Position numbers and translations under genes: made by a program | Notes under the pieces: model-generated | The model's input: the letters and a program-made list of their open reading frames with translations, nothing else | Database searches by the model: none | What the model was told of the DNA's origin: nothing | Assembly: GCA_018714665.1 (NCBI GenBank) | Contig: DVNA01000004.1 | Span: forward strand, 1-33,226 | From: Candidatus Gallibacteroides avistercoris | GTDB taxonomy: Bacteria > Bacteroidota > Bacteroidia > Bacteroidales > CHK158-818 | Length of the DNA: 33,226 nucleotides | Reading direction: 5' to 3' | In this document: positions 1,591 to 18,967 of the stretch, piece after piece | How positions within the stretch are numbered: the stretch's first letter is position 1 | Layout: each line of letters opens with the position of its first letter

Positions 1591-1677
1591 TTTATTCCGG
1601 TCGTTTTTCCCCTCTCTGGGGGTGTTTCCTCCCTCATTCTCTTTCTGCCGGATAGCCCTGATTCTGATTATAAATTG

Positions 1678-1685
1678 TATATTTG
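1678..1685 (+). promoter_or_regulatory. Candidate -7 box (TATATTTG) for metG
   Basis: Exact TAnnTTTG match 30 nt upstream of the metG ATG at 1715. Confidence 0.4.
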
Positions 1686-1714
1686 CAAACAGAAAACAAG
1701 ATATGCACACCTAT

Positions 1715-3784: not shown

Positions 3785-5236
3785 ATGTCCGGAGAGAGTC
3801 CCCTGAAAGTCAAAACCCAGCACGCGTTGTTGTGGAATGCGTTGGACAAGGTGGTCTTGCAACTTGTCTCGCTGGCGATTAACCTGATTCTGGCCCGGGA
3901 ACTGCTGGACGATACCGACTATGGCCTTTGGGGGATGTTGGCCATTTTTGTGGCCATTGCCAACGCCATGACCGATTGCGGCCTTTCGTCGGCGTTGATA
4001 CGGAAATCCGTCATTTCAGAAAAAGATTACAATACGGCGTTCTATTTCAACCTTGCCTCGTCGTTGCTCCTGTACGGGATACTCTATGCTGCCGCCCCGG
4101 CCATCGCCCGTTTTTACGATGAACCGGTGCTGGTACCGTTGTCGCGGGTACTGTTTCTGGTCCCGATTCTCAATGCCGTAGGGTTGGTACAATCGACGCA
4201 ACTGGCCAAGCAGATACGGTTCAGCCGGCTGACGTTGGTCAATATGGGCAGTCTGCTCTTTTCCGGCGTAGCCGCCATTGCCACGGCCCTGTACGGGTAT
4301 GGCGTCTGGGCGCTCATCATCCAGCAGGTGGTGTTGGCCGGGTCCAAGAGCTTGTTGCTGTGGATGCTGAACCGGTGGCGTCCCAAGTGGCAGTTCAGCA
4401 CGGAATCGTTTAAGGAGATGTTCTTTTTCGGGACCAACCTGACCCTCTCCGGCATCTTGAATGTCGTTTTCCTGAACATATACTCCTCGTTTCTGGGGAA
4501 GTTGTACAAAGAGGATGTCGGTTTCTATGCACAGGCAGTCCGTTGGAGCGACATGGCGGTTTTCTCCCTGGCCGGGACCATCCAGACGGCCACCTATCCC
4601 GTGTTCAGCGCCGTCCAGACCGACACGCAACGGCTTCTTCGCGCCTATCGCAAGACGATGCGTTTTACGGCATTCGTATCCCTGCCGGCCCTGTTGGGGC
4701 TGGTTTTGGTCAGTCGGCCGCTGTTGCTTTGTCTGCTGACCGACAAGTGGGCCGCCTCCATCCCCTATATGCAACTGCTCTGTTTGGCCGGTATCTTTAC
4801 TGTCTTTACGCAGGTGAACCACAATTTCTTGAAGATTGCCGGGAACTCGCGGATGCTGCTGTTGCTCGAAATAGGCAAGATGGCGTTGGTCGGCATCGTG
4901 TTCCTGCTTACCTGGCACCTCTCGCCCGTGGCCATTGTGGCCGGACAGGTACTGGTACGGGTAGTGGTCTATTTCTCGAATGCCTATTTCATCGGCAGGG
5001 TAGTGGGGTATGGCTGGTGGATGCAGTGCAGGGATATCTTCCCGTACGCCGCAATCAGCGGGGCCATGGTAGTGGTGGGGTATGTAGCGGGGCTTCCCGT
5101 TCAGAACATATACGGACAACTGTTCCTGCAAATAGCCATCTGTGCGCTCTTCTACCTGGGCGTCAACAAATGGTTGCATTCCAAGATATTGAGTGAAGTT
5201 TTACAGATATTAAAAAAAGAGAAGAGAGAGATATGA
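3785..5236 (+). CDS. wzx: Wzx-type oligosaccharide flippase (MOP superfamily polysaccharide biosynthesis protein)
   Basis: 483 aa and highly hydrophobic multi-pass. N-terminus (ALLWNALDKVVLQLVSLAINLILARELLDDTDYGLWGMLAIF) is typical of the Wzx/RfbX family. Its stop overlaps the next ATG (ATGA at 5233-5236). Confidence 0.8.
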   Translation: MSGESPLKVKTQHALLWNALDKVVLQLVSLAINLILARELLDDTDYGLWGMLAIFVAIANAMTDCGLSSALIRKSVISEKDYNTAFYFNLASSLLLYGILYAAAPAIARFYDEPVLVPLSRVLFLVPILNAVGLVQSTQLAKQIRFSRLTLVNMGSLLFSGVAAIATALYGYGVWALIIQQVVLAGSKSLLLWMLNRWRPKWQFSTESFKEMFFFGTNLTLSGILNVVFLNIYSSFLGKLYKEDVGFYAQAVRWSDMAVFSLAGTIQTATYPVFSAVQTDTQRLLRAYRKTMRFTAFVSLPALLGLVLVSRPLLLCLLTDKWAASIPYMQLLCLAGIFTVFTQVNHNFLKIAGNSRMLLLLEIGKMALVGIVFLLTWHLSPVAIVAGQVLVRVVVYFSNAYFIGRVVGYGWWMQCRDIFPYAAISGAMVVVGYVAGLPVQNIYGQLFLQIAICALFYLGVNKWLHSKILSEVLQILKKEKREI

Positions 5237-6213
5237 AGACGACAGACAATCCTACCGTAAGCGTATTGATGATATGCTACAATCAACAGGAGTATGTGGG
5301 TCAGGCGATCCGGAGCGTCATGCGGCAGAAGACGACCTTCCCCGTCGAGTTGATTATCCACGACGATTGCAGTACTGATGGTACGGGAGAGGTCTGTATG
5401 CAGTATGCCCGCCGCTATCCAGAGTCGATCCGTTATGTGCGGAACGAAAAAAATGTGGGGTTGGAGGAGAATTTCATCCGTGCCTACCACTTGGCGCGGG
5501 GAAAATACATTGCCATTTGCGAGGGCGATGACTATTGGTTGGGACGGAAAAAGTTGCAGCGGCAGGTCCGTGTGATGGAGGCCCATCCCGAGTATGCCAT
5601 CTGTTTCCATCGGACGCTGAACTACTATATGCACGACGGCAGCAAGAGCCTTACCGCCCGTGAACGGCCCGCTGTTACCACCTTGTACGATTTGGCCCGG
5701 AAGAATTATATCTCGAATGTCTCGTGCCTCTACCGCAAGCAGCCGTTCGAGTTGCCCGCATGGATGTCGCAGGTACGCACCTACGACTATGCCATGCACC
5801 TGCTCAACGCCTGTTACGGCAAAATCGTCTTCCTTCCGCAGGTGATGGCCGTTTACCGGATACACGGTCGCAGCGTATGGAGCGAGTCGGGTGCCGAGAA
5901 GCGTTATCAGATTGCCATGAAGGTGCGTGAATGCGTCATGCTGCATCTGGCCGATACACATCCCGAGGTAGCCGCCATCTTGCGCGAGAAGTACCTGGAT
6001 AATGCCCAAGCGTTGTTGCGTTATTACCGGGCACAGGAAAACCGCGACGGGTTCGACTCGGTTCTGCGTGAGGTACAGCACTACTTTCCCGGTTTTACGG
6101 CGGGCGATGTAGGCGACGCCCTCCCTTCGGGAGGCTCCCCCTTCCGGGCGTTTTTATCTTCGGCCCGGCGTCAGCTTTCAAAATGGTTGCCGCTTCCCGG
6201 CAGGCGGATATAG
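5233..6213 (+). CDS. Glycosyltransferase family 2
   Basis: 326 aa. GT-A N-terminus VSVLMICYNQQEYVGQAIRSVMRQ...LIIHDDCSTDGT and an ICEGDDYW motif. Translationally coupled to wzx. Confidence 0.85.
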   Translation: MKTTDNPTVSVLMICYNQQEYVGQAIRSVMRQKTTFPVELIIHDDCSTDGTGEVCMQYARRYPESIRYVRNEKNVGLEENFIRAYHLARGKYIAICEGDDYWLGRKKLQRQVRVMEAHPEYAICFHRTLNYYMHDGSKSLTARERPAVTTLYDLARKNYISNVSCLYRKQPFELPAWMSQVRTYDYAMHLLNACYGKIVFLPQVMAVYRIHGRSVWSESGAEKRYQIAMKVRECVMLHLADTHPEVAAILREKYLDNAQALLRYYRAQENRDGFDSVLREVQHYFPGFTAGDVGDALPSGGSPFRAFLSSARRQLSKWLPLPGRRI

Positions 6214-6217
6214 GCGA

Positions 6218-6721
6218 TCAAAGGCTTTCGTAACGCTTCATGATGTCGTCGAAGAGCCTTTCCCGTTTCAGAATCCATTCGATAAATTCCCGGAAAGCAC
6301 CGTTCCCTCCACAGCGTGAGGTAACTACCTGTACCCGATCCTTGACGTAATCGACGGCATTTGCCGGCGATGCGCTCAGCCCTGCGTGCAGCAACAGCGG
6401 CAGGTCGTTGATATCATCCCCCATAAAGGCCACCTCTTGCAGCGTGATGCCCATTTGCTGGCATAGCTCACGGGCCAGCGAGAGCTTGTCTTTTACCCCC
6501 AGGAAGATGTGTTCGATGTGAAGTTTCTCGCCTCTTTTCCGGACAATCTCGGTATTCTCTCCCGTCATAATGGCTACCGGAATACCCAGGTCGCGGCAGA
6601 AAATCACGCCCCAGCCGTCGGCTACGTGGAAGCGTTTCATTACATCGCCCTCGCGGGTATAGTACATTCCCCCGTCGGTCCATACACCGTCTATGTCGGT
6701 AATTATCAGTTTCGGTAACAT
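6218..6721 (-). CDS. HAD-superfamily KdsC-type phosphatase (KDO-8-P / KDN-9-P / Neu5Ac-9-P phosphatase family)
   Basis: Trimmed to the ATG at 6721 (167 aa). The longer ORF in the track overlaps the upstream gene. Motif I is DIDGVWTDG and motif IV is MGDDINDLP. Size matches the capless C0 KdsC subfamily. Confidence 0.8.
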   Translation of the reverse strand: MLPKLIITDIDGVWTDGGMYYTREGDVMKRFHVADGWGVIFCRDLGIPVAIMTGENTEIVRKRGEKLHIEHIFLGVKDKLSLARELCQQMGITLQEVAFMGDDINDLPLLLHAGLSASPANAVDYVKDRVQVVTSRCGGNGAFREFIEWILKRERLFDDIMKRYESL

Positions 6722-6723
6722 GG

Positions 6724-7413
6724 TTATAGCAATTTTTCTTTTAGGATAAATTCGGCAAATGCCCAATCCAGCGGCGAGTCCAGGTCGAGCGAGTGGAGCT
6801 CGTCCATCTCCCACTTGCGGATACGTTCGAACCGCGCGAGCGGTTTCTCCCGCAACGTTTGCGGACGTATCACGTAAACCGCCCCGTTGTATTCCCACAC
6901 CGGAGGGGCTTCCTGTCGGCGGGTGTAGCATCCTTTCCCTTTCGAGATGCGCAGAAAACCCGCTTCGTCCGTCTCGAACAGGTTATAGTAGGGGTTGGCC
7001 GAGGCCTGTTTGACCGACACCACCATATCGGTATCGTCGTCGTACAACGCTGTGGCGCCGGCTACATCTTCTACCCGCCGGAAAGGCGAGGTAGGTTGCA
7101 ACAAGATGACGGCATCGAACTGACGTCCGGCCTGTTGGTAGTGGTCTAAGGCGTGCAGGATTACCTCCCGGCTGCCCGAGGTGTCGGACGAGAGGGCCTC
7201 CGGACGGACAAACGGTACCCGCAATCCATATCCTTCGGCAATCCGGATAATCTCTTCGTCATCGGTCGATACGCAGATGTTTTCCGCATCGGTCAGTTGC
7301 AGAGCCATTTCGATGGAGTAACCTATCAGCGGGATACCTGCCAGCGGTTTCCGGTTTTTATGGGGAATCCCCTTGCTCCCTTTGCGGGCGGGAATCAGGT
7401 AGAGTCCGTTCAT
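6724..7413 (-). CDS. CMP-nonulosonic acid synthetase (acylneuraminate cytidylyltransferase family; LegF/NeuA-like)
   Basis: Trimmed to the ATG at 7413 (229 aa). N-terminal signature LIPARKGSKGIPHKNRK; also ILLQPTSPFR. The 391-aa ORF in the track is an out-of-frame overlap with the upstream gene. Confidence 0.85.
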   Translation of the reverse strand: MNGLYLIPARKGSKGIPHKNRKPLAGIPLIGYSIEMALQLTDAENICVSTDDEEIIRIAEGYGLRVPFVRPEALSSDTSGSREVILHALDHYQQAGRQFDAVILLQPTSPFRRVEDVAGATALYDDDTDMVVSVKQASANPYYNLFETDEAGFLRISKGKGCYTRRQEAPPVWEYNGAVYVIRPQTLREKPLARFERIRKWEMDELHSLDLDSPLDWAFAEFILKEKLL

Positions 7414-7418
7414 GGGTA

Positions 7419-8465
7419 TCAATAGTTTATGTGTTTGGCCAATTCTTGTACTTTTTTGTAGTCGTCCGGTTTGCCGATGTCTATCCAGTATCCGATGATC
7501 GGGTATTTGATTACCCGTTTGTTGCGGCAAATCAGTTCCGTAATCAGGTCGGTAGCCTGGAATTTCTCCCCTTGGGGGATGAGCGAAAGCCATTCCCGTT
7601 TTATCAGGTATATGCCGGCATTGGCATAGTAGGTGTAGTTGGGTTTCTCTTCCAGACCGGTGATGCAGTTGCCCTCGGTTTCGACGATGGCGTAGGGGAC
7701 ATTGACACTGTACGGGACGGTGGCAATGGCCATATCGGCTTTCGAAGCGATGAACTCGGCATAAAACGCTTCGTAATCGATGTTGGTAAAGAGGTCGGAG
7801 TTCATAATCAGGACGGTGTCGTGGTTGAATTCCGGGATGAGCCCTACCGCCCCGATGGTTCCCAGAAATGCCGGTTCGGTAATGCAGGTTATCTGGCAAT
7901 CGGCCGATAGTGCCGACTCCTCGAAATGACGGACAATCTGCTCGCCCAAATAGTTGACCGTAACGTAAAAGCGTTCCACGCCGTAATCTTTCAGCCGGGC
8001 GATGTTGTGGTCGATGATGGCCCGTCCTCCCACGTTCAGCAGCGGCTTGGGGGTGGTATCGGTCAAGGGCCGCAGCCGTTCTCCCCGTCCGCCCGCCATG
8101 ATGACGGCATCTATGGGCAGGAGCGATTTTTGTTTGCTGAAATCATATACCTTTTCAATCGTTCCGTCTGCCCGCAGGAAGGGAACCAGCGATAACCGTA
8201 TCTGTTTGTACTGGCGGATTCTTTCCACCGAGAGGTTGGACTCCGACAGGGCGTGGAAGCGGGTGTGCATGATCGTATTGACGGGGTCGTCTAACGTACT
8301 GCCGGAGAGCAATCCCCGCCGTATGTCGCCGTCTGTCAGGGTTCCCACCAGTACCTCCCGTTCGTCTGTTACCAAAAGCGTCAGGATGGTCCCGCTTATT
8401 TTCTGCATGGCATCGCGGATGGTGGCCGAATGGGGGATCAGGTAAGAAGAGTATTCGAGCGTCAT
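7419..8465 (-). CDS. CBS-domain-pair nucleotidyltransferase (PtmE-like sugar-1-phosphate nucleotidylyltransferase)
   Basis: 348 aa. N-terminal CBS pair (LLVTDEREVLVGTLTDGDIRRGLL) fused to an NTP-transferase domain with AVIMAGGRGERLRPLTDTTPKPLL. Its ATG overlaps the neuC stop (ATGA). Confidence 0.75.
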   Translation of the reverse strand: MTLEYSSYLIPHSATIRDAMQKISGTILTLLVTDEREVLVGTLTDGDIRRGLLSGSTLDDPVNTIMHTRFHALSESNLSVERIRQYKQIRLSLVPFLRADGTIEKVYDFSKQKSLLPIDAVIMAGGRGERLRPLTDTTPKPLLNVGGRAIIDHNIARLKDYGVERFYVTVNYLGEQIVRHFEESALSADCQITCITEPAFLGTIGAVGLIPEFNHDTVLIMNSDLFTNIDYEAFYAEFIASKADMAIATVPYSVNVPYAIVETEGNCITGLEEKPNYTYYANAGIYLIKREWLSLIPQGEKFQATDLITELICRNKRVIKYPIIGYWIDIGKPDDYKKVQELAKHINY

Positions 8466-9628
8466 AGTTGTTTCAGGTCGTAAAAAGATTTGGGTATTAG
8501 GCGACGGAAATCGTCCTGTTGTTTCAGTATCTCCACAATTCTCCGGGCCGTGTCGGGTTGTTCGTACGGATTGGTCGTCGAGGCGGCTGTTTGCGCCATT
8601 TTATCGGAAAAGGCCGTTCTAATGGCCGCTTCAATAGCTTTTTCCGAGCACTCACAATCGATAACCGACGAGGCTTTTAACCGACCCTTCTGCCGGTTCC
8701 CGATATTGACGGTAGGGATGCCGAACGAGGGGACCTCCAATACTCCGCTCGACGAGTTTCCGACCACGGCCGACACGTATTGCAGGCAGGAGAGGTAACG
8801 CAGGTGTCCCAACGAAGGGTAGGCCGCACACCGTTGGGGATGTGCGGAGACATATTCCGTTATCAGCGAGATAATCTCCCGCCCCTGTGTGTCGGAGTTG
8901 GGATGCGTGAAGAGTATCTTGGTTTGGGGAAAGGCATCGAGCGCCCGTAACAGCTCTTTCAGCTGTTCGGTGGCCGGGTGCGATTCGAGTGTTTCGGGAT
9001 GGAATGTAACGAGCAGGGTCGGGCAATCCAACGAAAAGGCGAGGGCGTTTTCCAGCTCCTCTTTTCCCAACAGGGGCAGGTGGCGGATGTTGTCCACCCC
9101 CAGGGCTCCGACGTTGAATACGGTCGAGGGGTTTTCGCCCAGCTGGATGATTCGGTTCCGATAGACCTCGGTCGAGGGGAAGTGCAGGTGGCTCATCTTG
9201 GTGATGGAGTGGCGTATGGCGTCGTCGAAGGCGCCCTCGGTAACATCCCCTCCGGAGATGTGTGCCACCGGTATTTTGTAGAGCAGTGCGGCCGAGGCGG
9301 CAGCCAGCATTTCATAACGGTCGCCTAAGAGTACGATCAAATCGGGTTGCAGCGATTCGTAGGCATCGGCCAGCCCGATCATGCCCAATCCCGTTGATTT
9401 GGCCGTGCCGTTGGCCGTGTCGGAGGATAGCAGCATCTCTACCTTCCGGTCTATCGTAAATCCGTCGGCCTCGATCTCCCGGTAGGTCAAGCCGAACTCC
9501 GGGGAGAGGTGCGTGTTGGTAGCGATGATTTGCAGTTGCCACGACGTTTCCGCATCGATGAGGTGCATCAATCGGCTCATTAATCCATATTCGGCACGGC
9601 TGCCGGTTACCACGCAAATCTTTTTCAT
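8462..9628 (-). CDS. neuC: UDP/GDP-N-acetylhexosamine 2-epimerase, hydrolysing (NeuC/LegG family)
   Basis: 388 aa. Segments: VVTGSRAEYGL, LGDRYE, HISGGDVTEGAFDD, TFHPET, GNSSSG. Confidence 0.88.
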   Translation of the reverse strand: MKKICVVTGSRAEYGLMSRLMHLIDAETSWQLQIIATNTHLSPEFGLTYREIEADGFTIDRKVEMLLSSDTANGTAKSTGLGMIGLADAYESLQPDLIVLLGDRYEMLAAASAALLYKIPVAHISGGDVTEGAFDDAIRHSITKMSHLHFPSTEVYRNRIIQLGENPSTVFNVGALGVDNIRHLPLLGKEELENALAFSLDCPTLLVTFHPETLESHPATEQLKELLRALDAFPQTKILFTHPNSDTQGREIISLITEYVSAHPQRCAAYPSLGHLRYLSCLQYVSAVVGNSSSGVLEVPSFGIPTVNIGNRQKGRLKASSVIDCECSEKAIEAAIRTAFSDKMAQTAASTTNPYEQPDTARRIVEILKQQDDFRRLIPKSFYDLKQL

Positions 9629-10632
9629 AGGGTAATCAGTTCGTCGGGTTTATAGTCTCTGTTTGCCGGAGTTCCGATGATTTCGTTCCATTTCATCGGA
9701 GAAATACCGATTCCCGGCCGTTTGGTCGTCAGGTTGTTTTCGGTGAACAGTTCTCCTTGACGGATCTCGGTGGCCGCCACAATGCTTTTGCGGGCTACGG
9801 CCCGGTTCTCCGCTTCTCCGGCGAGGGGTTGCTTGGTCTCTCCCTCTAAGGCTTTTTCTACGGCCCGGATAGAGGCTACCAGCTGTTTCAGCTCTTCGGG
9901 TTCGATGGAGGCTTTGTGGTCCGGCCCCGCCATCTGGCGGTCGAGGGTGAAATGTTTTTCAATCACGCAAGCTCCCAACGCCGCGGCGGCCACGGCAATG
10001 GCCGTTCCCTCGGTGTGGTCCGAATAGCCTGTTTTGACCCCGAATATCTCTCCTAACCGCCGCATCGCATGCAGGTGGACATCCTCGTACGGGGCGGGGT
10101 ATTCGGTGGTACAGTGCAGCAGGGTGATTTTCTCTTTGGTCAGTCCGTTGGCTGTCAATACCGACAGGGCCTCTCCAATCTCTTCGAGCGACGACATGCC
10201 GGTAGAGAGGATAATCGGTTTCCCGCTCCGGGCAATCTGAACCAGGTAGGGGTAGTTGGTAATTTCGCCGGAGGGGATTTTCCAGGTGTCGATGTCGAGC
10301 CGCAACAGCAGGTCGATGCTCTCCTGGTCGAACGGCGATGAGAGAAAACCGATTCCCCGGCTGGCGCAATAGTCGGCCAGCAGGTAGAAGTCCGTCTCCG
10401 ACAGGGCGAGCCGTCGCAACATATCCAGTTGGTTTTCGTCGGTCGTCTCCGGTTGGTTCTGGCGTTGGTATGCTGCCTGGGGGGCAGCTGCCGAAGCCAG
10501 TTTTTCGGGGACGAAGGTTTGGAATTTCACATAATCGGCCTTTGCCTCAGCCGCGGCATCTATCAGCCGTCGGGCTATGGCGATGTCGCCGTTGTGGTTT
10601 ACCCCGATCTCTGCAATAACGATGGTCTTCAT
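9625..10632 (-). CDS. neuB: Nonulosonic acid synthase (N-acetylneuraminate / N,N'-diacetyllegionaminate synthase; NeuB/LegI)
   Basis: 335 aa. Segments: IAEIGVNHNGD, YVKFQTF, HCTTEYPAP, GYSDHT, and a C-terminal SAF domain. Confidence 0.9.
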   Translation of the reverse strand: MKTIVIAEIGVNHNGDIAIARRLIDAAAEAKADYVKFQTFVPEKLASAAAPQAAYQRQNQPETTDENQLDMLRRLALSETDFYLLADYCASRGIGFLSSPFDQESIDLLLRLDIDTWKIPSGEITNYPYLVQIARSGKPIILSTGMSSLEEIGEALSVLTANGLTKEKITLLHCTTEYPAPYEDVHLHAMRRLGEIFGVKTGYSDHTEGTAIAVAAAALGACVIEKHFTLDRQMAGPDHKASIEPEELKQLVASIRAVEKALEGETKQPLAGEAENRAVARKSIVAATEIRQGELFTENNLTTKRPGIGISPMKWNEIIGTPANRDYKPDELITL

Positions 10633-11267
10633 AGCGATTGTGTCCGATGGGCCGGTTGCCCGATGTAGGTTCCCGGTGTGATGATGTCGCGGCTTACCAA
10701 ACTTCCTGCGCCTAAAATAACCCGTTGTGTGACGGATATGCTGTGGAAAACGGTACAGTTACTCCCGATAAAGCACTCTTTGCCTATCTCTACCTCTCCG
10801 TTGAGGATGGCTCCGGTAGAGAGGTGCGTGTGCGAATGGACGATGGTGTCGTGTTCGACGATGGCCCCGGTGTTGATAATGCAGTTTTCGCCTATTTTAG
10901 CCCCGGCATTGACTACGGCCCGGTTCAGGATGATGGTACCCTCCCCGATTTGGGCGTGCCGCGAAACGACGGCGTAGGGAGAGATGAGGGTGGCGAATTG
11001 GCCTCCCATGATTTTTATCTGGTCGAATATGGCAACGCGCCGGGCGGCCGACTTGATCTGTCCCAACGTAATCAGAAATTCGTGGTCGGTCTCTACCCAT
11101 TGGGCAAACTCGTCGTCCGTCCCCACGATGGGGTAACCTAAAACCGTTTCTCCTACCCGTTCGGGTACGTCCAGAATTCCTTCTATCATTACGTTGTCCA
11201 TGAGTTCAATCGCGTTGATGCACGATTTACAGTGGCCTCCGCCTCCAATTAAGATTAGTTTTTTCAT
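10629..11267 (-). CDS. Left-handed beta-helix sugar N-acetyltransferase (NeuD/PglD family; LegH-like)
   Basis: 212 aa. N-terminal Rossmann-like LILIGGGGHCKSCINAIE followed by hexapeptide repeats (IGEGTIILNRAVVNAGAKIGENCIINTGAIVEHD). Confidence 0.8.
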   Translation of the reverse strand: MKKLILIGGGGHCKSCINAIELMDNVMIEGILDVPERVGETVLGYPIVGTDDEFAQWVETDHEFLITLGQIKSAARRVAIFDQIKIMGGQFATLISPYAVVSRHAQIGEGTIILNRAVVNAGAKIGENCIINTGAIVEHDTIVHSHTHLSTGAILNGEVEIGKECFIGSNCTVFHSISVTQRVILGAGSLVSRDIITPGTYIGQPAHRTQSL

Positions 11268-12406
11268 AATACCACGCTGCTTGGAATGTTAATAATTCGC
11301 TCTTCTAACCAGTGAGCGTTTGTCAAGTGGTCGTGTTGGCACTGTTCGAACATGGGCAACTGGGTCATCAGTCGCCATGCCGGACGGGTCATGACGCCGT
11401 TATCATTGCTGTATGCCAGAAATTCATCTCGCGATTCCTTGTCGGGCATAATCAGTGTATTCAACCAATAGTTCGATTGACACCCCTCCGGTTCGGTAAA
11501 AAACGAAACCGGCAACGCCTCGAAAAATGCGTTGTAGCGGTGGGCAATCTCTCGTTTCTTTTCGATGAAAAGGGGCAGATTCTCCATTTGTGCACACCCT
11601 AAGGCAGCGTTGATGTTGGGCATCCGGTAGTTGTATCCTATCGCATCGTGTACAAATTCCCACCGGTGGGGCAGTTTGGCCTGGGTAGTCAGGTGTTTGG
11701 CCCGGGCTCCTAAGTCGGCATCTTGAAAAAGCAACATCCCGCCTCCTCCCGTGGTGACGGTTTTGTTTCCGTTAAAACTTAAAACGCCGATTTTACCGAA
11801 CGTTCCGGTATGTTTCCCCTTGTAGAAGCTACCCAAACTTTCGGCGGCATCTTCCACCACGGCGATGTGGTACCGGTTGCAAACCTCCAACAATTCGTCC
11901 AGGTGTACCGGGTGCCCGAATGTGTGCATCGGTACGCAGGCTGCAATCCGGTTTCCGGTTGTCCGGTTGTAACAACCATCGCCCCGCATCTGGGCATTCT
12001 CTTTCAACCATTGCTCCACGGCGGCGGGGGATAGCCCCAACGTGTCGCGGTCCACATCCAGAAATACCGGACGGGCGCCGATGTAGCTGATGGCATTTGC
12101 CGTAGCGATGAAAGTGAGGGGTTGGGTAATCACTTCGTCGTATTGCTTTACGCCGGCCAACAGCAGGGCCATGTGCAGGGCGTTGGTGCCGTTTACGCAG
12201 ACAACGGCCCGGGCCGCTCCGGTATAGTCGGCCACCATCTCTTCGAAACGATCTACAAATTTCCCTACGCTCGATACGAACGTAGAGTCGATACACGCTT
12301 CCAGATAACGCTTTTCGTTCCCTGCAAAACAGGGTGCGTGCAGCGGAATTGTTCCCTCCGTCCCCGCATAGAGCGTTTTTATGAATGATACGATCTGGTT
12401 ATACAT
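11264..12406 (-). CDS. legC: DegT/DnrJ/EryC1-family PLP aminotransferase (LegC-like)
   Basis: 380 aa. Segments: CVNGTNALHMAL, and a PLP-lysine region SFNGNKTVTTGGGG typical of the LegC subgroup. Confidence 0.8.
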   Translation of the reverse strand: MYNQIVSFIKTLYAGTEGTIPLHAPCFAGNEKRYLEACIDSTFVSSVGKFVDRFEEMVADYTGAARAVVCVNGTNALHMALLLAGVKQYDEVITQPLTFIATANAISYIGARPVFLDVDRDTLGLSPAAVEQWLKENAQMRGDGCYNRTTGNRIAACVPMHTFGHPVHLDELLEVCNRYHIAVVEDAAESLGSFYKGKHTGTFGKIGVLSFNGNKTVTTGGGGMLLFQDADLGARAKHLTTQAKLPHRWEFVHDAIGYNYRMPNINAALGCAQMENLPLFIEKKREIAHRYNAFFEALPVSFFTEPEGCQSNYWLNTLIMPDKESRDEFLAYSNDNGVMTRPAWRLMTQLPMFEQCQHDHLTNAHWLEERIINIPSSVVL

Positions 12407-13379
12407 TGTATATCTGCCATTTGTAGTTCTTTAAATGTTCGGGTTGGGTAAACCATTGTACGGTTTTCGACAACCCCTCTTCTATGGTATGTCGGGGGGT
12501 GAAACCGGTCAATTTGTGTAGCAGCGAGTTGTCTCCCCACAACCGGAAAACTTCCGATTTCACCGGACGAATCCTGACCTTATCTTCGATAAAGCGTACC
12601 TCCTCTTTTCCCATGATCCGGGCAATCAGCGAGAGAGTGTCGCGCATCGATATTTCGTAGTTGGAGGCGATGTTCACCTCCTGTCCGATGGCTTCGGGGC
12701 ATTGTGCCAGGGCGATAAAACCGGCGCAGGTATCCTCCACGTAGTTGAAATCGCGGGTGGGCGAGAGCGATCCCAGTTTAATCTCTTCGGCACCGTTGGC
12801 GATTTGCGTGATGATGGTGGGGATGATGGCTCTGGCCGATTGACGGGGTCCGTATGTGTTGAACGGACGGGCAATGATTACCGGCAAGTCAAAAGCGCTG
12901 TAAAAACTCTTTGCCAGGGCGTCTGCTCCGATTTTGGAGGCGGAGTAGGGCGATTGCGGCTGTTTGGGATGGTTTTCGTCGATGGGCACGTAACGGGCTG
13001 TCCCATATACCTCGGAGGTGGAGGTTACCACCACCCGTTCCACCTTTTCTTCCCATGCGGCCTGGCAGATGTTGAGCGTACCCTTTACGTTGGTATCTAT
13101 GTAGCTGTCGGGGGCGATGTACGAGTAGGGTATGGCGATCAGTGCGGCCAGGTGGAATACCGTGTCGATGCCCTGCATGATATGCCGGCAGAGATGGGGG
13201 TCGCGTACATCGCCCGCTACCACCTCCAAAGCAGGGTGTTCCAATCCTTCGAGCCAACCCCGGTATCCGAACGAGTTGTAGTAGGACAGGGCCCGTACCC
13301 GGTATCCTTGTGCTAAAAGCATTTCGGTCAAATGCGAACCGATAAAGCCGTCTGCTCCTGTAACCAATATATGCTGCAT
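12399..13379 (-). CDS. legB: NAD-dependent sugar-nucleotide 4,6-dehydratase (SDR; LegB-like)
   Basis: ATG at 13379 (MQHILVTGADGFIGSHL). The track start at 13385 is a TTG. Catalytic YxxxK is in SPYSASKIGAD. 326 aa. Confidence 0.8.
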   Translation of the reverse strand: MQHILVTGADGFIGSHLTEMLLAQGYRVRALSYYNSFGYRGWLEGLEHPALEVVAGDVRDPHLCRHIMQGIDTVFHLAALIAIPYSYIAPDSYIDTNVKGTLNICQAAWEEKVERVVVTSTSEVYGTARYVPIDENHPKQPQSPYSASKIGADALAKSFYSAFDLPVIIARPFNTYGPRQSARAIIPTIITQIANGAEEIKLGSLSPTRDFNYVEDTCAGFIALAQCPEAIGQEVNIASNYEISMRDTLSLIARIMGKEEVRFIEDKVRIRPVKSEVFRLWGDNSLLHKLTGFTPRHTIEEGLSKTVQWFTQPEHLKNYKWQIYNV

Positions 13380-13389
13380 AGGCAATCTG

Positions 13390-14259
13390 TTAAAGTTCTG
13401 GTTCTATTTTTATACGCTCAAACGCATCGATGTACGAGTTGGGCGTGATGTTGAAAATCTCTTTGTGCAGATAGCGTGCATACGCTTTTATCTGGAAATA
13501 GCCTTTGAACACGACGTACATGTGGTAAAGTATTTCGTAAAGTTTCGACGACTGGTCGTTGTGGTCGCGTGCCTTTACCTGTACGGCCTGTTGGGTATAG
13601 AAGTGTTTGGCGCCGTAATATACGGTGTTGTCGTCGTCCACCATCACCTCCGATAGCCAGGAGTGTTCGGCCCCGGCCAGGTAGAGTCGCTCGAAGGGCA
13701 TCCGCAGCCCCAACATGATGGCCGGAATCAGGACATTGTGCGGACGGGGCATCCCCCAGCCTTTTTTGTAAAGGGGATAGGTTATGCATTTGAATCCCTC
13801 TACCGGAGTGGTATTGTAGAAATGCAGAAAGATGTTCGGGTTCTTCGCCACCAGCTCCTGCCAGGTTTTGTGCGAACGGGACCGGACGGGCATGAACAGG
13901 TGCATCGGCCAGGTTACCGTTTGCGAGATAGTCCCGAAGAGCCGTTCGGTCGATTCGGGTTGAAGCCAGAAATAGGGGTCGGCCACCACGTACAGTTCCG
14001 GTTTTACGACGGTAAATTGTTTGGAACAGGCCGAGAAGTTTACCATCAGGCAACATTTGTCCTGCCAAAAGGAGGGCGATTTCTCAATGAGTCCGTTCAA
14101 CGAGGGGCCGTTGCCCATCACCACCAACTCTTTGGGATGGGTAACAGACAGGGGTACGTCCGTATGGAATTTTGTAAAAAGGAGAATTTTTACAAAACTG
14201 AGAGCCGTTTGTACGCAATCGGCGGTAAAATATTGCATCTTGTCTAAAAACGGAGTCAT
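13390..14259 (-). CDS. Hypothetical protein; candidate CstII/GT42-like (or DUF115/Maf-like) nonulosonic-acid transferase
   Basis: 289 aa and first gene of the operon. It has a VVMGNGPSL motif, a CLMVNF segment, LIPAIMLGLRMPFERLYLAGAEHSW, and a C-terminal NITPNSYIDAFERI. From memory, these occur in the same order and spacing as motifs in Campylobacter CstII (291 aa). Confidence 0.5.
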   Translation of the reverse strand: MTPFLDKMQYFTADCVQTALSFVKILLFTKFHTDVPLSVTHPKELVVMGNGPSLNGLIEKSPSFWQDKCCLMVNFSACSKQFTVVKPELYVVADPYFWLQPESTERLFGTISQTVTWPMHLFMPVRSRSHKTWQELVAKNPNIFLHFYNTTPVEGFKCITYPLYKKGWGMPRPHNVLIPAIMLGLRMPFERLYLAGAEHSWLSEVMVDDDNTVYYGAKHFYTQQAVQVKARDHNDQSSKLYEILYHMYVVFKGYFQIKAYARYLHKEIFNITPNSYIDAFERIKIEPEL

Positions 14260-14279
14260 AGTTTACGGCCTATTTTTTA

Positions 14280-14287
14280 CAAATGTA
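14280..14287 (-). promoter_or_regulatory. Candidate -7 box (TACATTTG on the minus strand) for the nine-gene NulO operon
   Basis: caaatgta on the + strand equals TAnnTTTG on the - strand, about 20 nt upstream of the ATG at 14259, within the 107-bp divergent intergenic region. Confidence 0.4.
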
Positions 14288-14317
14288 CATAAACTTTTCG
14301 TGAAACGAAAAAAATAT

Positions 14318-14325
14318 TATCTTTG
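14318..14325 (+). promoter_or_regulatory. Candidate -7 box (TATCTTTG) for the GT4-GT2 pair
   Basis: Exact TAnnTTTG match 42 nt upstream of the ATG at 14367. Confidence 0.4.
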
Positions 14326-14366
14326 TCTAAGGCAGACCGCTTGCCGTTTGAGTGATATATGGAGAG

Positions 14367-15644
14367 ATGAAAGTACTATTTGTCAATACATACGAGTCTC
14401 GTGGAGGGGCCGCTATTGCTTGCCGGAGGCTTGCCCGGGCAGTGTCGAGAGCCGGCGTCGATGTCCGTCTGTTGGTACGCGAACCTTTTTCCGGCGTAGA
14501 TCAGAGAATATCTTCCGTCTCCTCTTCGCGGATGGCCCGGATGTTGAATTTTTTCCGGTTTGCCTGGGAGCGGTTTACCATTTTTCTGTACAACCGGTTT
14601 TCGCGCCGCAATCTTTTTGCAGTCTCTATTGCCAACACGGGGGAGGATATCTCCCGGCGCAAGGAGGTACAGGAGGCCGATGTGATTCACCTGCATTGGG
14701 TAAACCAGGGTTTTTTATCGATCAAGGATATTCAGCGGCTGACGGAGCTGGGGAAGCCTGTTGTCTGGACGATGCACGATATGTGGCCGTTTACCGGCAT
14801 TTGCCATTATGCCTGGCAGTGCCGCCGTTTTGAAGAGCGGTGCGGCTGTTGCCCTTTCCTCGTCTCTCCCGGTGAAAACGATTTGTCGGCCCAGGTATTG
14901 GAACGGAAACAGAAATGGAAATTCTCCGATATCTCTTTCGTCGCTTGCAGCCGGTGGCTGTGCGACAATGCCCGAAAGGCTTCCCTCTTGCAAAACAGCG
15001 ACGTCTCGAATATCCCCAATCCCATCGATACCAACTTCTGGAAACCCCAGAACAAGCAGGAGGTACGCAAGATGTTCCGTTTCCCCGAAAAGCGGAAATT
15101 GCTGTTGTTTGTCGCCGACAACGTCTCCGATACGCGCAAAGGCATTGCCTACCTGTATGAGGCGCTGAAAATATTAGAGTTGAAAAAGGCCGATTTAATC
15201 GAAAAAATGTCGTTGGTCATATTGGGTAAGAGAAGTCGCGACGTATCGTTGCAGTCGCCCTTTCATACCATACCGATGGGTTATCTCTCCGATGCCAAAC
15301 AGATTTGCCGGTTGTACTCGGCCGTCGATCTGTTTGTAACGCCGTCGCTCGAAGACAACCTGCCCAATACCGTTATGGAGGCCATGGCCTGCGGCTGTCC
15401 GGTAGTAGGATTCCGTATCGGGGGAATCCCCGAAATGATAGACCACCTTCAAAACGGATACGTGGCCGAGAGCCGCTCTTCTGCTGACCTGGCCAAAGGG
15501 ATAGAAGAGATATTGTTTTCAGAGAACTATTTTTATTATAGCACCCAGGCCCGTTTAAAGGTACAACAGTCCTATGCTGAGCCCTATATTGCCCGGCAAT
15601 ATATGGATTTGTATCAGATATTATTGGATAAAAAATATGAATAA
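14367..15644 (+). CDS. Glycosyltransferase family 4 (GT-B, group 1)
   Basis: ATG at 14367 (MKVLFVNTYESRGGAA). The track start at 14352 is a GTG. C-terminal GT1 signature: VTPSLEDNLPNTVMEAMACGCPVVGFRIGGIPEMI. 425 aa. Confidence 0.85.
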   Translation: MKVLFVNTYESRGGAAIACRRLARAVSRAGVDVRLLVREPFSGVDQRISSVSSSRMARMLNFFRFAWERFTIFLYNRFSRRNLFAVSIANTGEDISRRKEVQEADVIHLHWVNQGFLSIKDIQRLTELGKPVVWTMHDMWPFTGICHYAWQCRRFEERCGCCPFLVSPGENDLSAQVLERKQKWKFSDISFVACSRWLCDNARKASLLQNSDVSNIPNPIDTNFWKPQNKQEVRKMFRFPEKRKLLLFVADNVSDTRKGIAYLYEALKILELKKADLIEKMSLVILGKRSRDVSLQSPFHTIPMGYLSDAKQICRLYSAVDLFVTPSLEDNLPNTVMEAMACGCPVVGFRIGGIPEMIDHLQNGYVAESRSSADLAKGIEEILFSENYFYYSTQARLKVQQSYAEPYIARQYMDLYQILLDKKYE

Positions 15645-16392
15645 ACCGCTCTTCTCCGTTATTACCGTTACATACAATGCCGAGCAGGTTGTGTTGCCGA
15701 CGTTGAAAAGCCTCTCGTCGCAAACCTGTACCGATTATGAGCACCTGGTAATCGACGGGGCTTCTACCGACCGTACCCTTGCCGTAGTAAAGGAGTTCGA
15801 CTCTTCCCGGTTGCGCATTATTTGCGAACCGGACAAGGGGTTGTACGATGCCATGAACAAGGGGATGGCCGCCGCTTGCGGGCAGTATCTCCTCTTTTTG
15901 AATGCCGGCGACTCCTTTTTCGACCCGCAGACGTTGCAGTCGCTCAAACAGCAGATAGAGGAGGCTTCGTCGCCGGATATCATCTATGGCGAGACCGCCT
16001 TGTGCGACGATGCCGGGAATCTGGTCGGGATGCGCCGGTTGAAAGCACCCGAGAAACTGACGTGGAAAAGTTTCCGGAACGGGATGTTGGTTTGTCATCA
16101 GGCCTTTATTGCCAAACGGGAGATAGCCCCTCCCTATGATTTGACTTACCGTTTCTCTGCCGATTTCGATTGGTGTATCCGTTGCATGAAACAGGCCCAG
16201 ACCATTCATAACAGCCACCGGGTACTCATCCGTTACCTTTCCGAAGGGTTGACTACCCGCAACCACAAGGCCTCGCTGAAAGAGCGTTACCGGATTATGT
16301 GCCGTTATTACGGTCGTATCCCCGTATCGTTGCTGCACCTGTGGTTTGCCGTTCGGTACTATTATGCCAAATGGATTGTAGGTAGGGTATAG
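15637..16392 (+). CDS. Glycosyltransferase family 2
   Basis: ATG at 15637 overlaps the GT4 stop by 8 nt. FSVITVTYNAEQVVLPTLKSLSSQTCTDYEHLVIDGASTDRT and FLNAGD (DxD-like). 251 aa. Confidence 0.85.
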   Translation: MNKPLFSVITVTYNAEQVVLPTLKSLSSQTCTDYEHLVIDGASTDRTLAVVKEFDSSRLRIICEPDKGLYDAMNKGMAAACGQYLLFLNAGDSFFDPQTLQSLKQQIEEASSPDIIYGETALCDDAGNLVGMRRLKAPEKLTWKSFRNGMLVCHQAFIAKREIAPPYDLTYRFSADFDWCIRCMKQAQTIHNSHRVLIRYLSEGLTTRNHKASLKERYRIMCRYYGRIPVSLLHLWFAVRYYYAKWIVGRV

Positions 16393-16459: not shown

Positions 16460-18913
16460 TTATTTAGCCTCTTTTTCTTTCTTTTTCCGGATGAGCGGGA
16501 CGGCGATGGTTGCCGCAAACAGCAATCCGATCAGAGCGAGGGCGATGAAAGCAATGGTTTCGGAGTTTTTGACCGAATCGGGATCAAACCGGAACAGTAC
16601 CTCGTGTTTTCCCTCCGGTATTTGCAGGGCGCGCAATACATAGTCGGCACGTACCTCTTTGGCGGGTTTCCCGTCGATGGTTACCTTCCAGCCGTCGGGG
16701 TAGTAGATTTCCGAGAATACGGCTAATCCGCCATTTACGGAATTGGCGGTATAGGTCAGTTCGTTGGGTTTGTACGAGGTGAGCTGGATGGTGTCGCCCG
16801 GAGTTTTGTTCAGGACGATGTTACCCAGGGCCTCTTTGAACCGCACATCGATTACTGCGGTATCCAGCGGGTTGAGGTGATCCAGTGCCTTCATCTCTTC
16901 GTCGGCGCTGTTGACCCATTGGATGGACGATACGAACCATCCGTTGCCCAAGGCTCCGGCGTTGCGTTGCACATAGGGTTTCCCGTTCTCATCGTTCTGG
17001 ATGATGTATTTCGTATTGAGCATATTGAGAACCTGCTGGTTTCCTTTGGAGAGTTGGTGTTCTATCAGGTCCTGGTAACGTCTGAGCTTGGCAGCGTGGT
17101 ACCCCCCTATCGATTTGTGGTAATAGGAGGTGGTGGGGTCGCTGAACGGGTTCTGTACCGTCAGGTTGAAGACGCGGTAGTTCGGGTCTTTGTCTTGCAG
17201 AATCTCCTTGTCGGCTTCTGTCATCGGGAACGGATTGGACAGTTGTCTTTTGGGTACGAAGTTACTGCTGTTCAGGTACCGTTTGTCAACCGTATAGAGG
17301 TCGCACAAAATCAGGGCCCCGATAGCTGCGATGTAAGTGTATTTCTTTACCCGTTGGGTAGCGTACAGGTAGGTTAGTCCGGCTCCCAGCAGGATAATTA
17401 TCAGGCTGCGCCAGGCATCGGCGGTAAAGATGGACCGACGGACCGATTCCAGGTAGGCCAGTATCTGTTGTACCTGCGGGTTTGCTTTTGCCTGCGGCAG
17501 GAAAGCCATCTGTTCCTGTTGGCTCAGGAATGAAAAGAAGAGGTTCGGGAAGAGGGCGAAAATCAGGGCTACACCGGCGGTAATTTCAAGAGAGAACAGC
17601 GTGGCGTGTTTCTTCTCTTTCAGGATGGCCGGATTCTCCAAAATCTCTTTCAACGCCAAAATGGCCAGTACCGGGATACAGAACTCGGCAATAACCAGCA
17701 TACTCGATACCGCCCTGAATTTGTTGTACATCGGGAAGTAGTCGATAAACAGGTCGGTCAGGGGCATGAAATTCTTTCCCCAGGCCAATACGATGGAGAG
17801 TACCGTTGCCGACAAAAGCGCCCATTTCAACGGGCCTTTTACGATAAAACAGCCCAATATGAAGAGCGTCAGGACGAAGGCTCCCACATATACCGGTCCC
17901 GAGGTAAAGGGTTGGTCTCCCCAGTACCTCATCTGTTGGGCGATTACCTGTCGGTATTGTTGGGGAACCTCTTTTACCAGATCCGGTTCCTGTCCGATAA
18001 ATACCGAACGTCCACCTTTTACATCCGGCACTAACAACGACCAGGTCTCTCCCAGTCCGTAGCTCCAACTGGTGATATAATCTTTTTCGAGCCCGGCCAA
18101 TCCGCTTTTGGCCACATTTTCGGGATGGGCCAGTTCGGAGAGTCCCCGGGTAGATTCTTTGCTGTATTCGTATGTATTGTACAGGTTGGGCCAGTTGGCG
18201 GCCACCGCCAGCAACGCGGCGATAACCAGTACGCCCGAGGCCTTGAAAAATTCGGCAATGCGCTTCTCCTTGACATAGGCTATACATTCGCAAACCACCA
18301 GTGCTAAGATGATGAACAGCGAGTAGTAGGTCATCTGTACGTGGTTGGCGGCAATCTGGAATGTAGCGAAGAGTGCTGCCAGAAAGGCTCCTGCCAGGTA
18401 TTTACCGCGATAAACCAGCAGGATACCGGCAATCGTGGGGGGGATGTGGGCCAGCGTGATGAATTTCCACAGGTGTCCTGCCTCGATCAGGATAAAAAAA
18501 TAGGAGGAAAAGGCGTAGGCAATTGCGCCGATAACGGCCAGATACCACCTCATCCTGAGCGTAATTAACAGGATAAAGAATCCTACCAGCATGATGAATA
18601 CTAACGAGACGGGGGCCGGCAGCCACAACCGGTAGGCGTTTTCCAGAAACCGTACTACTGCTGAGGGGGCGTAGCTGGGGGTAATCTGGTAATTGGGCAT
18701 CCCCGAGAAGAGGGAGTTGGTCCACCGGGTAACCTCCCCGGTTTGTTCGCGAAACGCTACTCCTTCCTGCCCGACGCCGATTCCCTGCATCGTGTCGGTC
18801 TGTAAGAGTACCTTTCCTTCGGCGATGTCCGGCATGAAAAATACGACCGAGATAACGACGAAAAGGAGAATTGAAATCAGATAGGGAAGCGATTTTTTTA
18901 CCTGTGGTATCAT
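16460..18913 (-). CDS. YfhO-family polytopic membrane protein (GT-C-like putative glycosyltransferase)
   Basis: About 817 aa from the ATG at 18913 (MIPQVKKSLPYLISILLFVV). The track start at 18964 is a TTG. N-terminal two thirds is multi-pass hydrophobic. A roughly 250-aa soluble C-terminal domain and a final TM helix follow (IAFIALALIGLLFAATIAVPLI). Confidence 0.7.
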   Translation of the reverse strand: MIPQVKKSLPYLISILLFVVISVVFFMPDIAEGKVLLQTDTMQGIGVGQEGVAFREQTGEVTRWTNSLFSGMPNYQITPSYAPSAVVRFLENAYRLWLPAPVSLVFIMLVGFFILLITLRMRWYLAVIGAIAYAFSSYFFILIEAGHLWKFITLAHIPPTIAGILLVYRGKYLAGAFLAALFATFQIAANHVQMTYYSLFIILALVVCECIAYVKEKRIAEFFKASGVLVIAALLAVAANWPNLYNTYEYSKESTRGLSELAHPENVAKSGLAGLEKDYITSWSYGLGETWSLLVPDVKGGRSVFIGQEPDLVKEVPQQYRQVIAQQMRYWGDQPFTSGPVYVGAFVLTLFILGCFIVKGPLKWALLSATVLSIVLAWGKNFMPLTDLFIDYFPMYNKFRAVSSMLVIAEFCIPVLAILALKEILENPAILKEKKHATLFSLEITAGVALIFALFPNLFFSFLSQQEQMAFLPQAKANPQVQQILAYLESVRRSIFTADAWRSLIIILLGAGLTYLYATQRVKKYTYIAAIGALILCDLYTVDKRYLNSSNFVPKRQLSNPFPMTEADKEILQDKDPNYRVFNLTVQNPFSDPTTSYYHKSIGGYHAAKLRRYQDLIEHQLSKGNQQVLNMLNTKYIIQNDENGKPYVQRNAGALGNGWFVSSIQWVNSADEEMKALDHLNPLDTAVIDVRFKEALGNIVLNKTPGDTIQLTSYKPNELTYTANSVNGGLAVFSEIYYPDGWKVTIDGKPAKEVRADYVLRALQIPEGKHEVLFRFDPDSVKNSETIAFIALALIGLLFAATIAVPLIRKKKEKEAK

Positions 18914-18931
18914 GTATGTAATGGGTTTGAA

Positions 18932-18955
18932 GCCGGGGAGAAGAGCCTCCCCGGC
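18932..18955 (-). terminator. GC-rich hairpin between ahcY and yfhO (weak terminator, attenuator or RNA stabiliser)
   Basis: Perfect 9-bp stem gccggggag / ctccccggc with a 6-nt loop. Only a short U-tract follows on the minus strand. Confidence 0.3.
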
Positions 18956-18967
18956 GGTATGCAACGG

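Follow-up and report, generated by a model that had tools for sequence, protein, structure and literature searches.

Which enzyme attaches the sialic-acid-like sugars that gut Bacteroidales are equipped to make, and to what does it attach them? The question is raised by a 33,226-nt stretch of Candidatus Gallibacteroides avistercoris (contig DVNA01000004.1, positions 1 to 33,226; "the window" below means the whole of this stretch), in which a 289-residue protein of no assigned function is encoded at the head of an operon for the synthesis of a nonulosonic acid (NulO), the class of sugars to which legionaminic acid (Leg), pseudaminic acid (Pse), and Kdn belong. A 2017 paper on Tannerella reported that neither the literature nor the databases held predictions for Leg transferases, and a 2025 review describes the enzymes for many steps of Bacteroidota O-glycosylation as largely unknown. 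An earlier note on this DNA had taken the protein for a candidate Leg transferase resembling CstII, a sialyltransferase of glycosyltransferase (GT) family 42, or the DUF115 proteins. Profile searches, structural comparison with Foldseek, gene context, and natural gene fusions all support the core of that reading, a CstII/DUF115-like candidate NulO transferase, as a predicted activity. The family is distantly related to sialyltransferases and almost always sits beside NulO synthesis genes, and for these two reasons we consider the 289-residue protein a probable NulO transferase; we put the probability of this at about 70%. On the same grounds, it is probably the enzyme with which gut Bacteroidales attach sialic-acid-like sugars to the protein glycans on their surface.

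The open reading frame (ORF) occupies positions 13390–14259 on the minus strand and starts with ATG. All motifs that had been listed for its product are present in the order given, namely VVMGNGPSL, CLMVNF, ELYVVADPYFW, HNVLIPAIMLGLRMPFERLYLAGAEHSW, a His-containing stretch, and NITPNSYIDAFERI. Homology searches returned 941 homologues at E ≤ 1e-3 (clusters at 90% identity), and the family as a whole comprises 2,502 representatives (clusters at 50% identity), nearly all of them full-length proteins of about 280–300 residues. Taken together with the 63 invariant columns in an alignment of 30 relatives, these counts identify the ORF as a real, strongly conserved gene. It had been called unannotatable, and rightly: a search against NCBIfam gave zero matches, the sole Pfam match is to PF01973 (MptE-like, formerly DUF115/Maf_flag10; 13.9 bits, E 0.048, gathering cut-off 34.6), and the homologues are labeled "hypothetical protein" wherever their source shows a name, the majority being nameless.

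The relationship to sialyltransferases emerges from a profile, A3, built from 51 diverse family members. When all PDB sequences were searched with A3 using hmmsearch, GT42 enzymes alone scored below an E-value of 0.9: CstI (2p2v) at 7.3e-5, and CstII (1ro7/1ro8) and related entries at 0.0014–0.0046. The alignments with CstII span the region from the GNGPSL loop to the G-x-D motif, covering family positions 38–201 and CstII residues 2–154. We also constructed a GT42 profile from homologues of CstII, after checking the CstII sequence itself against its PDB entry. Alignment of A3 with this profile in hhalign gave a probability of 95.3% and an E-value of 2.1e-8 over 60 columns, matching residues 39–100 of the target to CstII residues 1–57, over the donor-binding N-terminal third; GNGPSL was paired with GNGPSL, N74 with N31, and D94-P95 with N51-P52. 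A global profile alignment continues collinearly through R172 (R129 in CstII), H174-N175 (T131-S132), G196-A-E198 (G152-I-D154), F220-Y221 (F155-Y156), and TPNSYIDAF (CPNSLLANF). The pairings of the central block (H174-N175, G196-x-E198, and F220-Y221) are seen in global or extended alignments only, and no partner was identified for CstII Y162; we take CstII S132 and Y156/Y162 to be contacts to CMP and its phosphate. Residues that are at least 90% conserved in the family cluster in the motifs aligned to the CstII donor site.

A second thread, weak but recurrent, leads to PF01973, which is matched by 29 of the 30 aligned relatives at E ≤ 1 (best E-value 1.8e-6), the scores lying below the cut-off where checked. 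Precomputed PF01973 matches are present on some relatives. They are also found on several bona fide GT42 (PF06002) proteins (P0284, P0298, P0305, P0353, P0368, P0372, and P0383), so that PF06002 and PF01973 overlap at the sequence level.

The AlphaFold model of the protein (pLDDT 87.4, pTM 0.86) consists of a single domain plus one N-terminal helix, and its fold matches the central catalytic domain of Maf, a modified GT-A fold. The top Foldseek match in the PDB is the Maf glycosyltransferase 5MU5 (E 3.2e-6, query-normalized TM-score 0.52, probability 1.00), followed by archaeal MptE (8SD5, E 8.7e-5) and human ST8SiaIII (5BO8, E 1.3e-4), with SteA (9HMZ) also among the matches. The PF01973 domain of Maf has been described as a modified GT-A fold with a CstII-like donor-binding site (bioRxiv 10.1101/2020.06.03.131540). 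The comparison of structure and profiles with CstII and Maf that the earlier note had proposed thus returned Maf as the closest structure and GT42 as the similar profile. Judging from both profiles and model, we assign the protein to the sialyltransferase-like GT42/Maf/MptE superfamily as a distant relative, outside both curated families; the designation "CstII/GT42-type" is sound as a profile match and does not extend to membership in GT42 or Maf by curated thresholds.

The putative donor site can be followed through the minus-strand gene. The predicted CMP-binding loop GNGPSL (residues 49–54; 14098–14115) is the equivalent of CstII G8-L13, the invariant N74 (14038–14040) is aligned to CstII N31, and D94-P95 (13975–13980) to N51-P52. 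Within the central motif stretch HNVLIPAIMLGLRMPFERLYLAGAEHSW (13657–13755), GMPRPHNVLIP (residues 169–179; 13723–13755) contributes R172 and H174-N175, which face CstII R129 and T131-S132 in the global profile alignment, and GAEHSW (residues 196–201; 13657–13674) contributes G196-x-E198, which faces G152-I-D154. In H219-F220-Y221 (KHFY; 13597–13605), F220-Y221 corresponds to CstII F155-Y156, preceded by a 21-residue insertion; CstII Y156 is presumably the phosphate-contacting tyrosine. The segment NITPNSYIDAFER (residues 270–282; 13414–13452) is collinear with CLCPNSLLANF of CstII in an alternative alignment that is weak alone. At position 198, clades of the Leg type have glutamate and the Kdn clade has aspartate, and H199 and H219 are each kept in at least 90% of family members. 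H199 is a candidate catalytic residue and H219 a second candidate base. In Magnetospirillum magneticum Maf, the catalytic residues are given as E324/D415 in one passage and as Asp324/Glu415 in another (bioRxiv 10.1101/2020.06.03.131540); E198/D198 and D94 are, by position only, candidates for these acidic residues.

Residues 3–28 (14176–14253, minus strand) form an N-terminal helix that is absent from CstII and is modeled by AlphaFold with block pLDDT values of 82–94. An N-terminal extension with a hydrophobic stretch, possibly serving as a membrane tether, had been pointed out before. The extension is there, hhalign placing CstII residue 1 opposite residue 42, and the tether finds no support. 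The helix is moderately hydrophobic, with a maximum 19-residue Kyte-Doolittle score of 1.32, and carries the conserved polar residues S21 and K24, on which grounds we rejected a transmembrane anchor as unsupported. The helix may instead be packed against the domain or rest on the surface of the membrane.

Gene context ties the family to NulO synthesis. We collected 80 loci seeded with family members from the genomes of different species, of which five were cut by contig ends and 75 were informative. A NeuB-type synthase lies within 6 kb of the family gene in 70 of these 75 loci, being of the Kdn type in 68 and of the Leg type in two. The other five have no synthase within 10 kb downstream, and at least four of those metagenome-assembled genomes (MAGs) hold a Kdn cassette on another contig. 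The Kdn-type cassette consists of a CMP-transferase, a NeuB-like synthase, and a Kdn-9-phosphate phosphatase. As a control, 12 LFG-type O-glycosylation loci without a NulO synthase were inspected, and the family gene was absent from all 12. The connection even extends to single polypeptides, since the family domain is naturally fused in frame with a CMP-NulO synthetase in four divergent cases (L118, 6317–7954; L119, 2378–4036; L122, 3254–4897; and P0121). These fusion proteins, from several divergent Bacteroidales MAGs, are about 540 residues long, and the partner is a CMP-Kdn synthetase.

Sequence identity is 55–100% within clades of the family and 43–54% between them, and the clades track the type of cassette. 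Five positions are clade-diagnostic, two of which belong to donor motifs: position 49 of the GNGPS loop (G49/A49) and position 198 (E198/D198). A full Leg operon is found only in the clade of the window, where P0002 (77% identity) has the same operon. In a sister clade of 54–56% identity, the gene stands first in a variant Leg-like cassette that includes an ATP-grasp gene (L161, 10001–17290; L163, 6065–13296). This operon encodes a DegT-family protein, the ATP-grasp ligase, a 105-residue ORF, NeuB, NeuC, a nucleotidyltransferase, and a CMP-transferase, without dehydratase or phosphatase, and probably makes an N-acylated Leg-type derivative. A family member of about 34% identity heads a Pse-like cassette; the contigs of the distant members P0269, P0250, and P0222 were too short for context. 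Legionaminic acid is thus a matter of the window's clade only, and the family is mostly Kdn-linked. The proposal of a Leg transferase consequently stands for that clade, with its complete Leg operon, and does not carry over to the family as a whole.

In the window itself, the gene heads a tightly packed minus-strand operon, and the GT4 gene upstream of it (14352–15644) is divergent. That it is the first cistron, as had been claimed, is borne out by this arrangement, by a promoter element in the spacer, and by the start of the next gene 10 nt past its stop codon. The element is a Bacteroides-type −7 box (TAnnTTTG; TACATTTG, 14280–14287, minus strand) located 21 nt upstream of the ATG, and a second −7 box (TATCTTTG, 14318–14325, plus strand) faces the divergent GT4 gene, both correctly oriented inside the 92-bp divergent spacer (14260–14351). 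Across the window the motif occurs 13 times against 15 expected; with no window-wide enrichment, only the placement and orientation of the boxes are suggestive. They suggest back-to-back promoters for the NulO operon and the GT4/GT2 pair within the 92-bp spacer.

The cistrons behind the gene, all on the minus strand, can be assigned as follows. LegB, an NAD-dependent 4,6-dehydratase (12399–13379), matches TIGR04180 with 488 bits against a cut-off of 475. It is followed by a DegT-family aminotransferase (11264–12406) and a PglD-like N-acetyltransferase (10629–11267), assigned the LegC and LegH roles by family match, then by a NeuB-family NulO synthase in the LegI role (9625–10632; TIGR03569) and a NeuC-type hydrolyzing 2-epimerase in the LegG role (8462–9628; TIGR03568, 477 bits). 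The next gene encodes a sugar-1-phosphate nucleotidyltransferase (NTP_transferase; 7419–8465), whose N-terminal stretch matches KpsF/GutQ models and is read as CBS-like; it presumably has a PtmE-like role in supplying GDP-GlcNAc. A CMP-NulO synthetase in the LegF role (6724–7413; PF02348, CTP_transf_3), whose start codon was located and which is PseF-like below threshold, completes the set. By their sequence assignments, these seven cistrons make up a complete legionaminic-acid pathway. An eighth and last one (6218–6721) encodes a Kdn-9-phosphate phosphatase (NF058599; 233.9 bits, cut-off 180). Legionaminic acid is a 9-deoxy sugar and cannot bear a 9-phosphate; the phosphatase therefore has no role in Leg synthesis, and the earlier note was mistaken in singling out the gene of the 289-residue protein as the one cistron of the operon that lacks a pathway role. 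The phosphatase is 48–71% identical to those of Kdn-type loci and 84% identical to those of the Leg-type relatives L159 and L160. It is a probable relic of a swap from a Kdn to a Leg cassette behind the transferase gene.

The operon lies within a larger frame. On its left are metG (1622–3754), the wzx flippase gene (3785–5236), and a GT2 gene (5233–6213), and on its right the conserved terminal GT4 (14352–15644) and GT2 (15574–16392) genes, all on the plus strand. LFG loci have been described as metG, then wzx, variable genes, and finally two conserved glycosyltransferases (PMC12871550). The window matches this layout of an LFG-type general O-glycosylation locus, and roughly 40 related loci share this frame; one contig, from the MAG of an uncultured member of the Bacteroidales, has about 98% protein-level identity to the window. 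The scan of window ORFs brought up no TagB/GT-B-like protein, the type to which the NulO transferases of Tannerella forsythia belong, and the GT4 and GT2 genes are the conserved LFG pair, which is also found in LFG loci without a NulO cassette; hence no rival transferase is seen in the window.

Adjoining the terminal LFG glycosyltransferases is a gene for a YfhO-like polytopic membrane protein of 834 residues (16460–18964, minus strand). Such a YfhO-like neighbor also occurs in L001, L002, and L156–L159, and a 992-residue YfhO protein (L168, 2011–4989) adjoins the distant family member that bears the Pse-like cassette. According to the 2025 review, the oligosaccharyltransferase and the outer-glycan ligase of the Bacteroidota O-glycosylation system are still undiscovered. 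A YfhO-type (GT-C-like) protein would be a plausible candidate.

Combining these elements, the 289-residue protein would be a glycosyltransferase, either soluble or peripherally attached to the membrane, whose donor is a CMP-activated nonulosonic acid. Its family would share the modified GT-A fold and the donor-binding motifs with GT42 and with the central PF01973 domain of Maf, in the form of a single domain of about 285–300 residues. In the window, the donor would be CMP-legionaminic acid (presumably Leg5,7Ac2), which the seven cistrons behind the gene would supply. If CstII and Maf are a guide, CMP-Leg would be bound through the GNGPS loop, N74, D94, R172/H174/N175, E198-H199, and H219-Y221 as candidate residues, and the reaction, if the protein is indeed catalytic, would be an inverting one, as in CstII. 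The acceptor would be the undecaprenyl-linked outer O-glycan assembled by the LFG locus at the inner membrane, on its cytoplasmic side, and the sugar would be transferred before the glycan is flipped by Wzx.

Several results weigh against this assignment. A single-sequence phmmer search of the PDB, as well as a search with a narrower profile, A1, made from members that share 46% identity or more with the query, gave chance matches only (antibody light chains, UBA5), and A1 aligned with a single CstII sequence over GNGPSL alone, at 16% probability; because of these failures, A3 was needed for GT42 to be detected. PF06002, the GT42 family of Pfam, was absent for the window protein at E ≤ 10 and for all 30 aligned members at E ≤ 1, and the window protein falls below the PF01973 gathering score (13.9 against 34.6 bits). 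In the global alignment no histidine stands opposite the catalytic His188 of CstII, H199 and H219 lying elsewhere. The series of CstII motifs that had been proposed is confirmed in its N-terminal donor elements, is reproduced by the global alignment in its later, collinear pairings, and fails at the catalytic histidine. CstII is also absent from the top 50 Foldseek matches, and so the link to GT42 runs via sequence profiles and that of the fold via Maf and ST8SiaIII. The fold is common to MptE, a pterin pyrophosphokinase, and SteA, and therefore is by itself no proof of glycosyl transfer.

Genomic context, too, supplies counterexamples. In 29 of 75 loci seeded with Kdn synthases, the family hidden Markov model found no member. 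Six of the 29 are on short contigs and the remainder have about 4–8 kb of flank; those examined resemble capsule loci. The family would therefore be one solution among several. No known sialyltransferase family was found among the scanned neighbors of Kdn cassettes that lack the family. Such cassettes, in capsule-like loci, are flanked by ORFs of about 310–520 residues without a Pfam match (L151, 10130–11680 and 12727–13923; L131, 9664–10809; L116, 6242–7180; L126, 9497–10666), which could be further unrecognized NulO transferases. Finally, in the close relative L159 the gene is accompanied by a truncated cassette (6261–9289) of acetyltransferase, NeuB, and phosphatase only, without LegB, LegC, NeuC, nucleotidyltransferase, or CMP-synthetase. 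This locus could be decaying, or its remaining genes could be elsewhere in the genome. Truncated cassettes stand beside the transferase gene in the close relatives L156–L158 as well, these and L159 being 67–74% identical.

The alternative that fares best leaves the chemistry unchanged and differs in the acceptor: the protein would be the same kind of NulO transferase, acting on a capsule or lipopolysaccharide unit or, like Maf, directly on Ser/Thr of a protein. Many loci from Muribaculaceae, Porphyromonadaceae, and related MAGs do combine the gene with a Kdn cassette without metG, wzx, GT4, or GT2 nearby, and Maf, the closest structural match, glycosylates protein Ser/Thr directly. We nevertheless consider a different acceptor unlikely, given that the LFG frame encloses the gene, between wzx and GT4/GT2, both in the window and in roughly 40 of the Bacteroides-type loci retrieved, and that the protein lacks the N- and C-terminal flanking domains of the 632-residue Maf structure. 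To our knowledge, Bacteroidales are unflagellated, which also counts against a Maf-like protein acceptor.

We regard it as quite improbable that the protein has an accessory or modifying function in the NulO pathway, for example as a chaperone or scaffold for CMP-NulO or a modifier of the activated sugar, with GT2 or GT4 as the actual transferase. Linkage and fusion to a CMP-NulO synthetase would equally fit a protein that acts on CMP-NulO or passes it on, and the catalytic base is not assignable by homology. Against this, the characterized sugar-acting relatives of the same fold (GT42, Maf, and GT29) are all transferases, and the residues conserved to at least 90% cluster in the CstII-donor-site motifs. 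The GT4/GT2 pair and the wzx-adjacent GT2 are, moreover, also present in LFG loci without a NulO cassette, so that GT4 and GT2 do not co-vary with the sugar. Very improbable is the idea of an MptE-like nucleotide-dependent kinase or pyrophosphokinase, or else a SteA-like enzyme that has this fold and does not transfer sugars, linked to the operon by chance: it could appeal to the "MptE-like" Pfam model and to MptE (8SD5) and SteA (9HMZ) among the Foldseek matches, but MptE matches about 200 residues with query-normalized TM-scores of 0.32–0.35 against 0.52 for Maf, sialyltransferases are the only PDB sequence-profile matches, the linkage persists over four different NulO cassettes, and we know of no kinase step of the MptE kind that Leg, Kdn, or Pse synthesis would need.

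As a putative NulO transferase acting on an LFG glycan, the protein can be set beside four known systems. With Maf (5MU5) it shares the best structural match, the weak recurrent similarity to PF01973, and a gene position beside NulO biosynthesis genes; the donors of Maf are CMP-activated Pse, Leg, Neu5Ac, or Kdo (bioRxiv 10.1101/2020.06.03.131540). The Maf structure, however, has 632 residues with flanking domains, whereas the window protein is a single domain of 289 residues; the context of Maf is flagellar, in contrast to the general O-glycosylation locus of Bacteroidales, and Maf acts on protein Ser/Thr, whereas the acceptor here is presumably a glycan. CstI and CstII, the only PDB sequences found by the family profile, are of similar size (about 290 residues) and have collinear motifs, but identity is only about 12–20%, and the family adds an N-terminal helix of about 40 residues and the 21-residue insertion before FY. 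The donors in the family would be Leg, Kdn, or Pse-like sugars, unlike the Neu5Ac used by CstII.

The transferases Tanf_01245 and TFUB4_00887 of T. forsythia have the same proposed role in the same phylum and glycosylation system, and their genes, like that in the window, adjoin a CMP-NulO operon inside an O-glycosylation locus. These Pse- or Leg-derivative transferases are proteins of 442–445 residues of the TagB/GT-B type with DXD, D/E-D/E-G, and HP motifs (PMC5420450), and not large Maf-like proteins, as the earlier note had it. Compared by the paper's description, they have another fold and no homology to the family, and a Pfam scan of the window protein found no Glyphos_transf/TagB match; the contention that the window holds a different, compact solution stands. 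In Bacteroides thetaiotaomicron, BT1713–BT1715 form a Kdn pathway of Kdn-9-phosphate phosphatase, Kdn-9-phosphate synthase, and CMP-Kdn synthetase. Most relatives of the window protein head an operon of these three enzyme types, of which the window keeps the phosphatase, but the three are biosynthetic enzymes and not a transferase. The literature searched turned up no Kdn transferase, nothing useful on BT1716 or BT1715, and no description of a compact DUF115/GT42-like NulO transferase in Bacteroidota.

What would be new, then, is that a Maf/GT42-like catalytic core, standing alone, has been recruited to a locus for glycan assembly. A bolder version of this proposal, to which we give slightly less than even odds, is that the family (>2,500 clusters at 50% identity) is an unrecognized glycosyltransferase family in which such a core serves as the generic NulO capper of Bacteroidales O-glycosylation, and that in the window's clade a Kdn-to-Leg cassette swap was accompanied by retuning of the donor site (A49 to G and D198 to E), with the phosphatase left as a relic. 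In that case many common gut Bacteroides, among them B. cellulosilyticus, B. intestinalis, B. stercoris, B. clarus, and B. oleiciplenus, would have a Kdn-capped O-glycoproteome, unreported so far.

Very few transferases are known for legionaminic acid, pseudaminic acid, or Kdn, and the family offers a compact, apparently soluble candidate whose clades are apparently adapted to different sugars (Leg, derivatives of Leg, Kdn, or Pse-like sugars), a possible glyco-engineering tool for sialic-acid mimics. If the assignment is correct, one of the Bacteroidota O-glycosylation steps that lack an enzyme gains its enzyme. Many abundant gut Bacteroides would then carry Kdn or Leg on the glycoproteins of their surface, a matter of relevance for how the immune system and sialidases recognize them.

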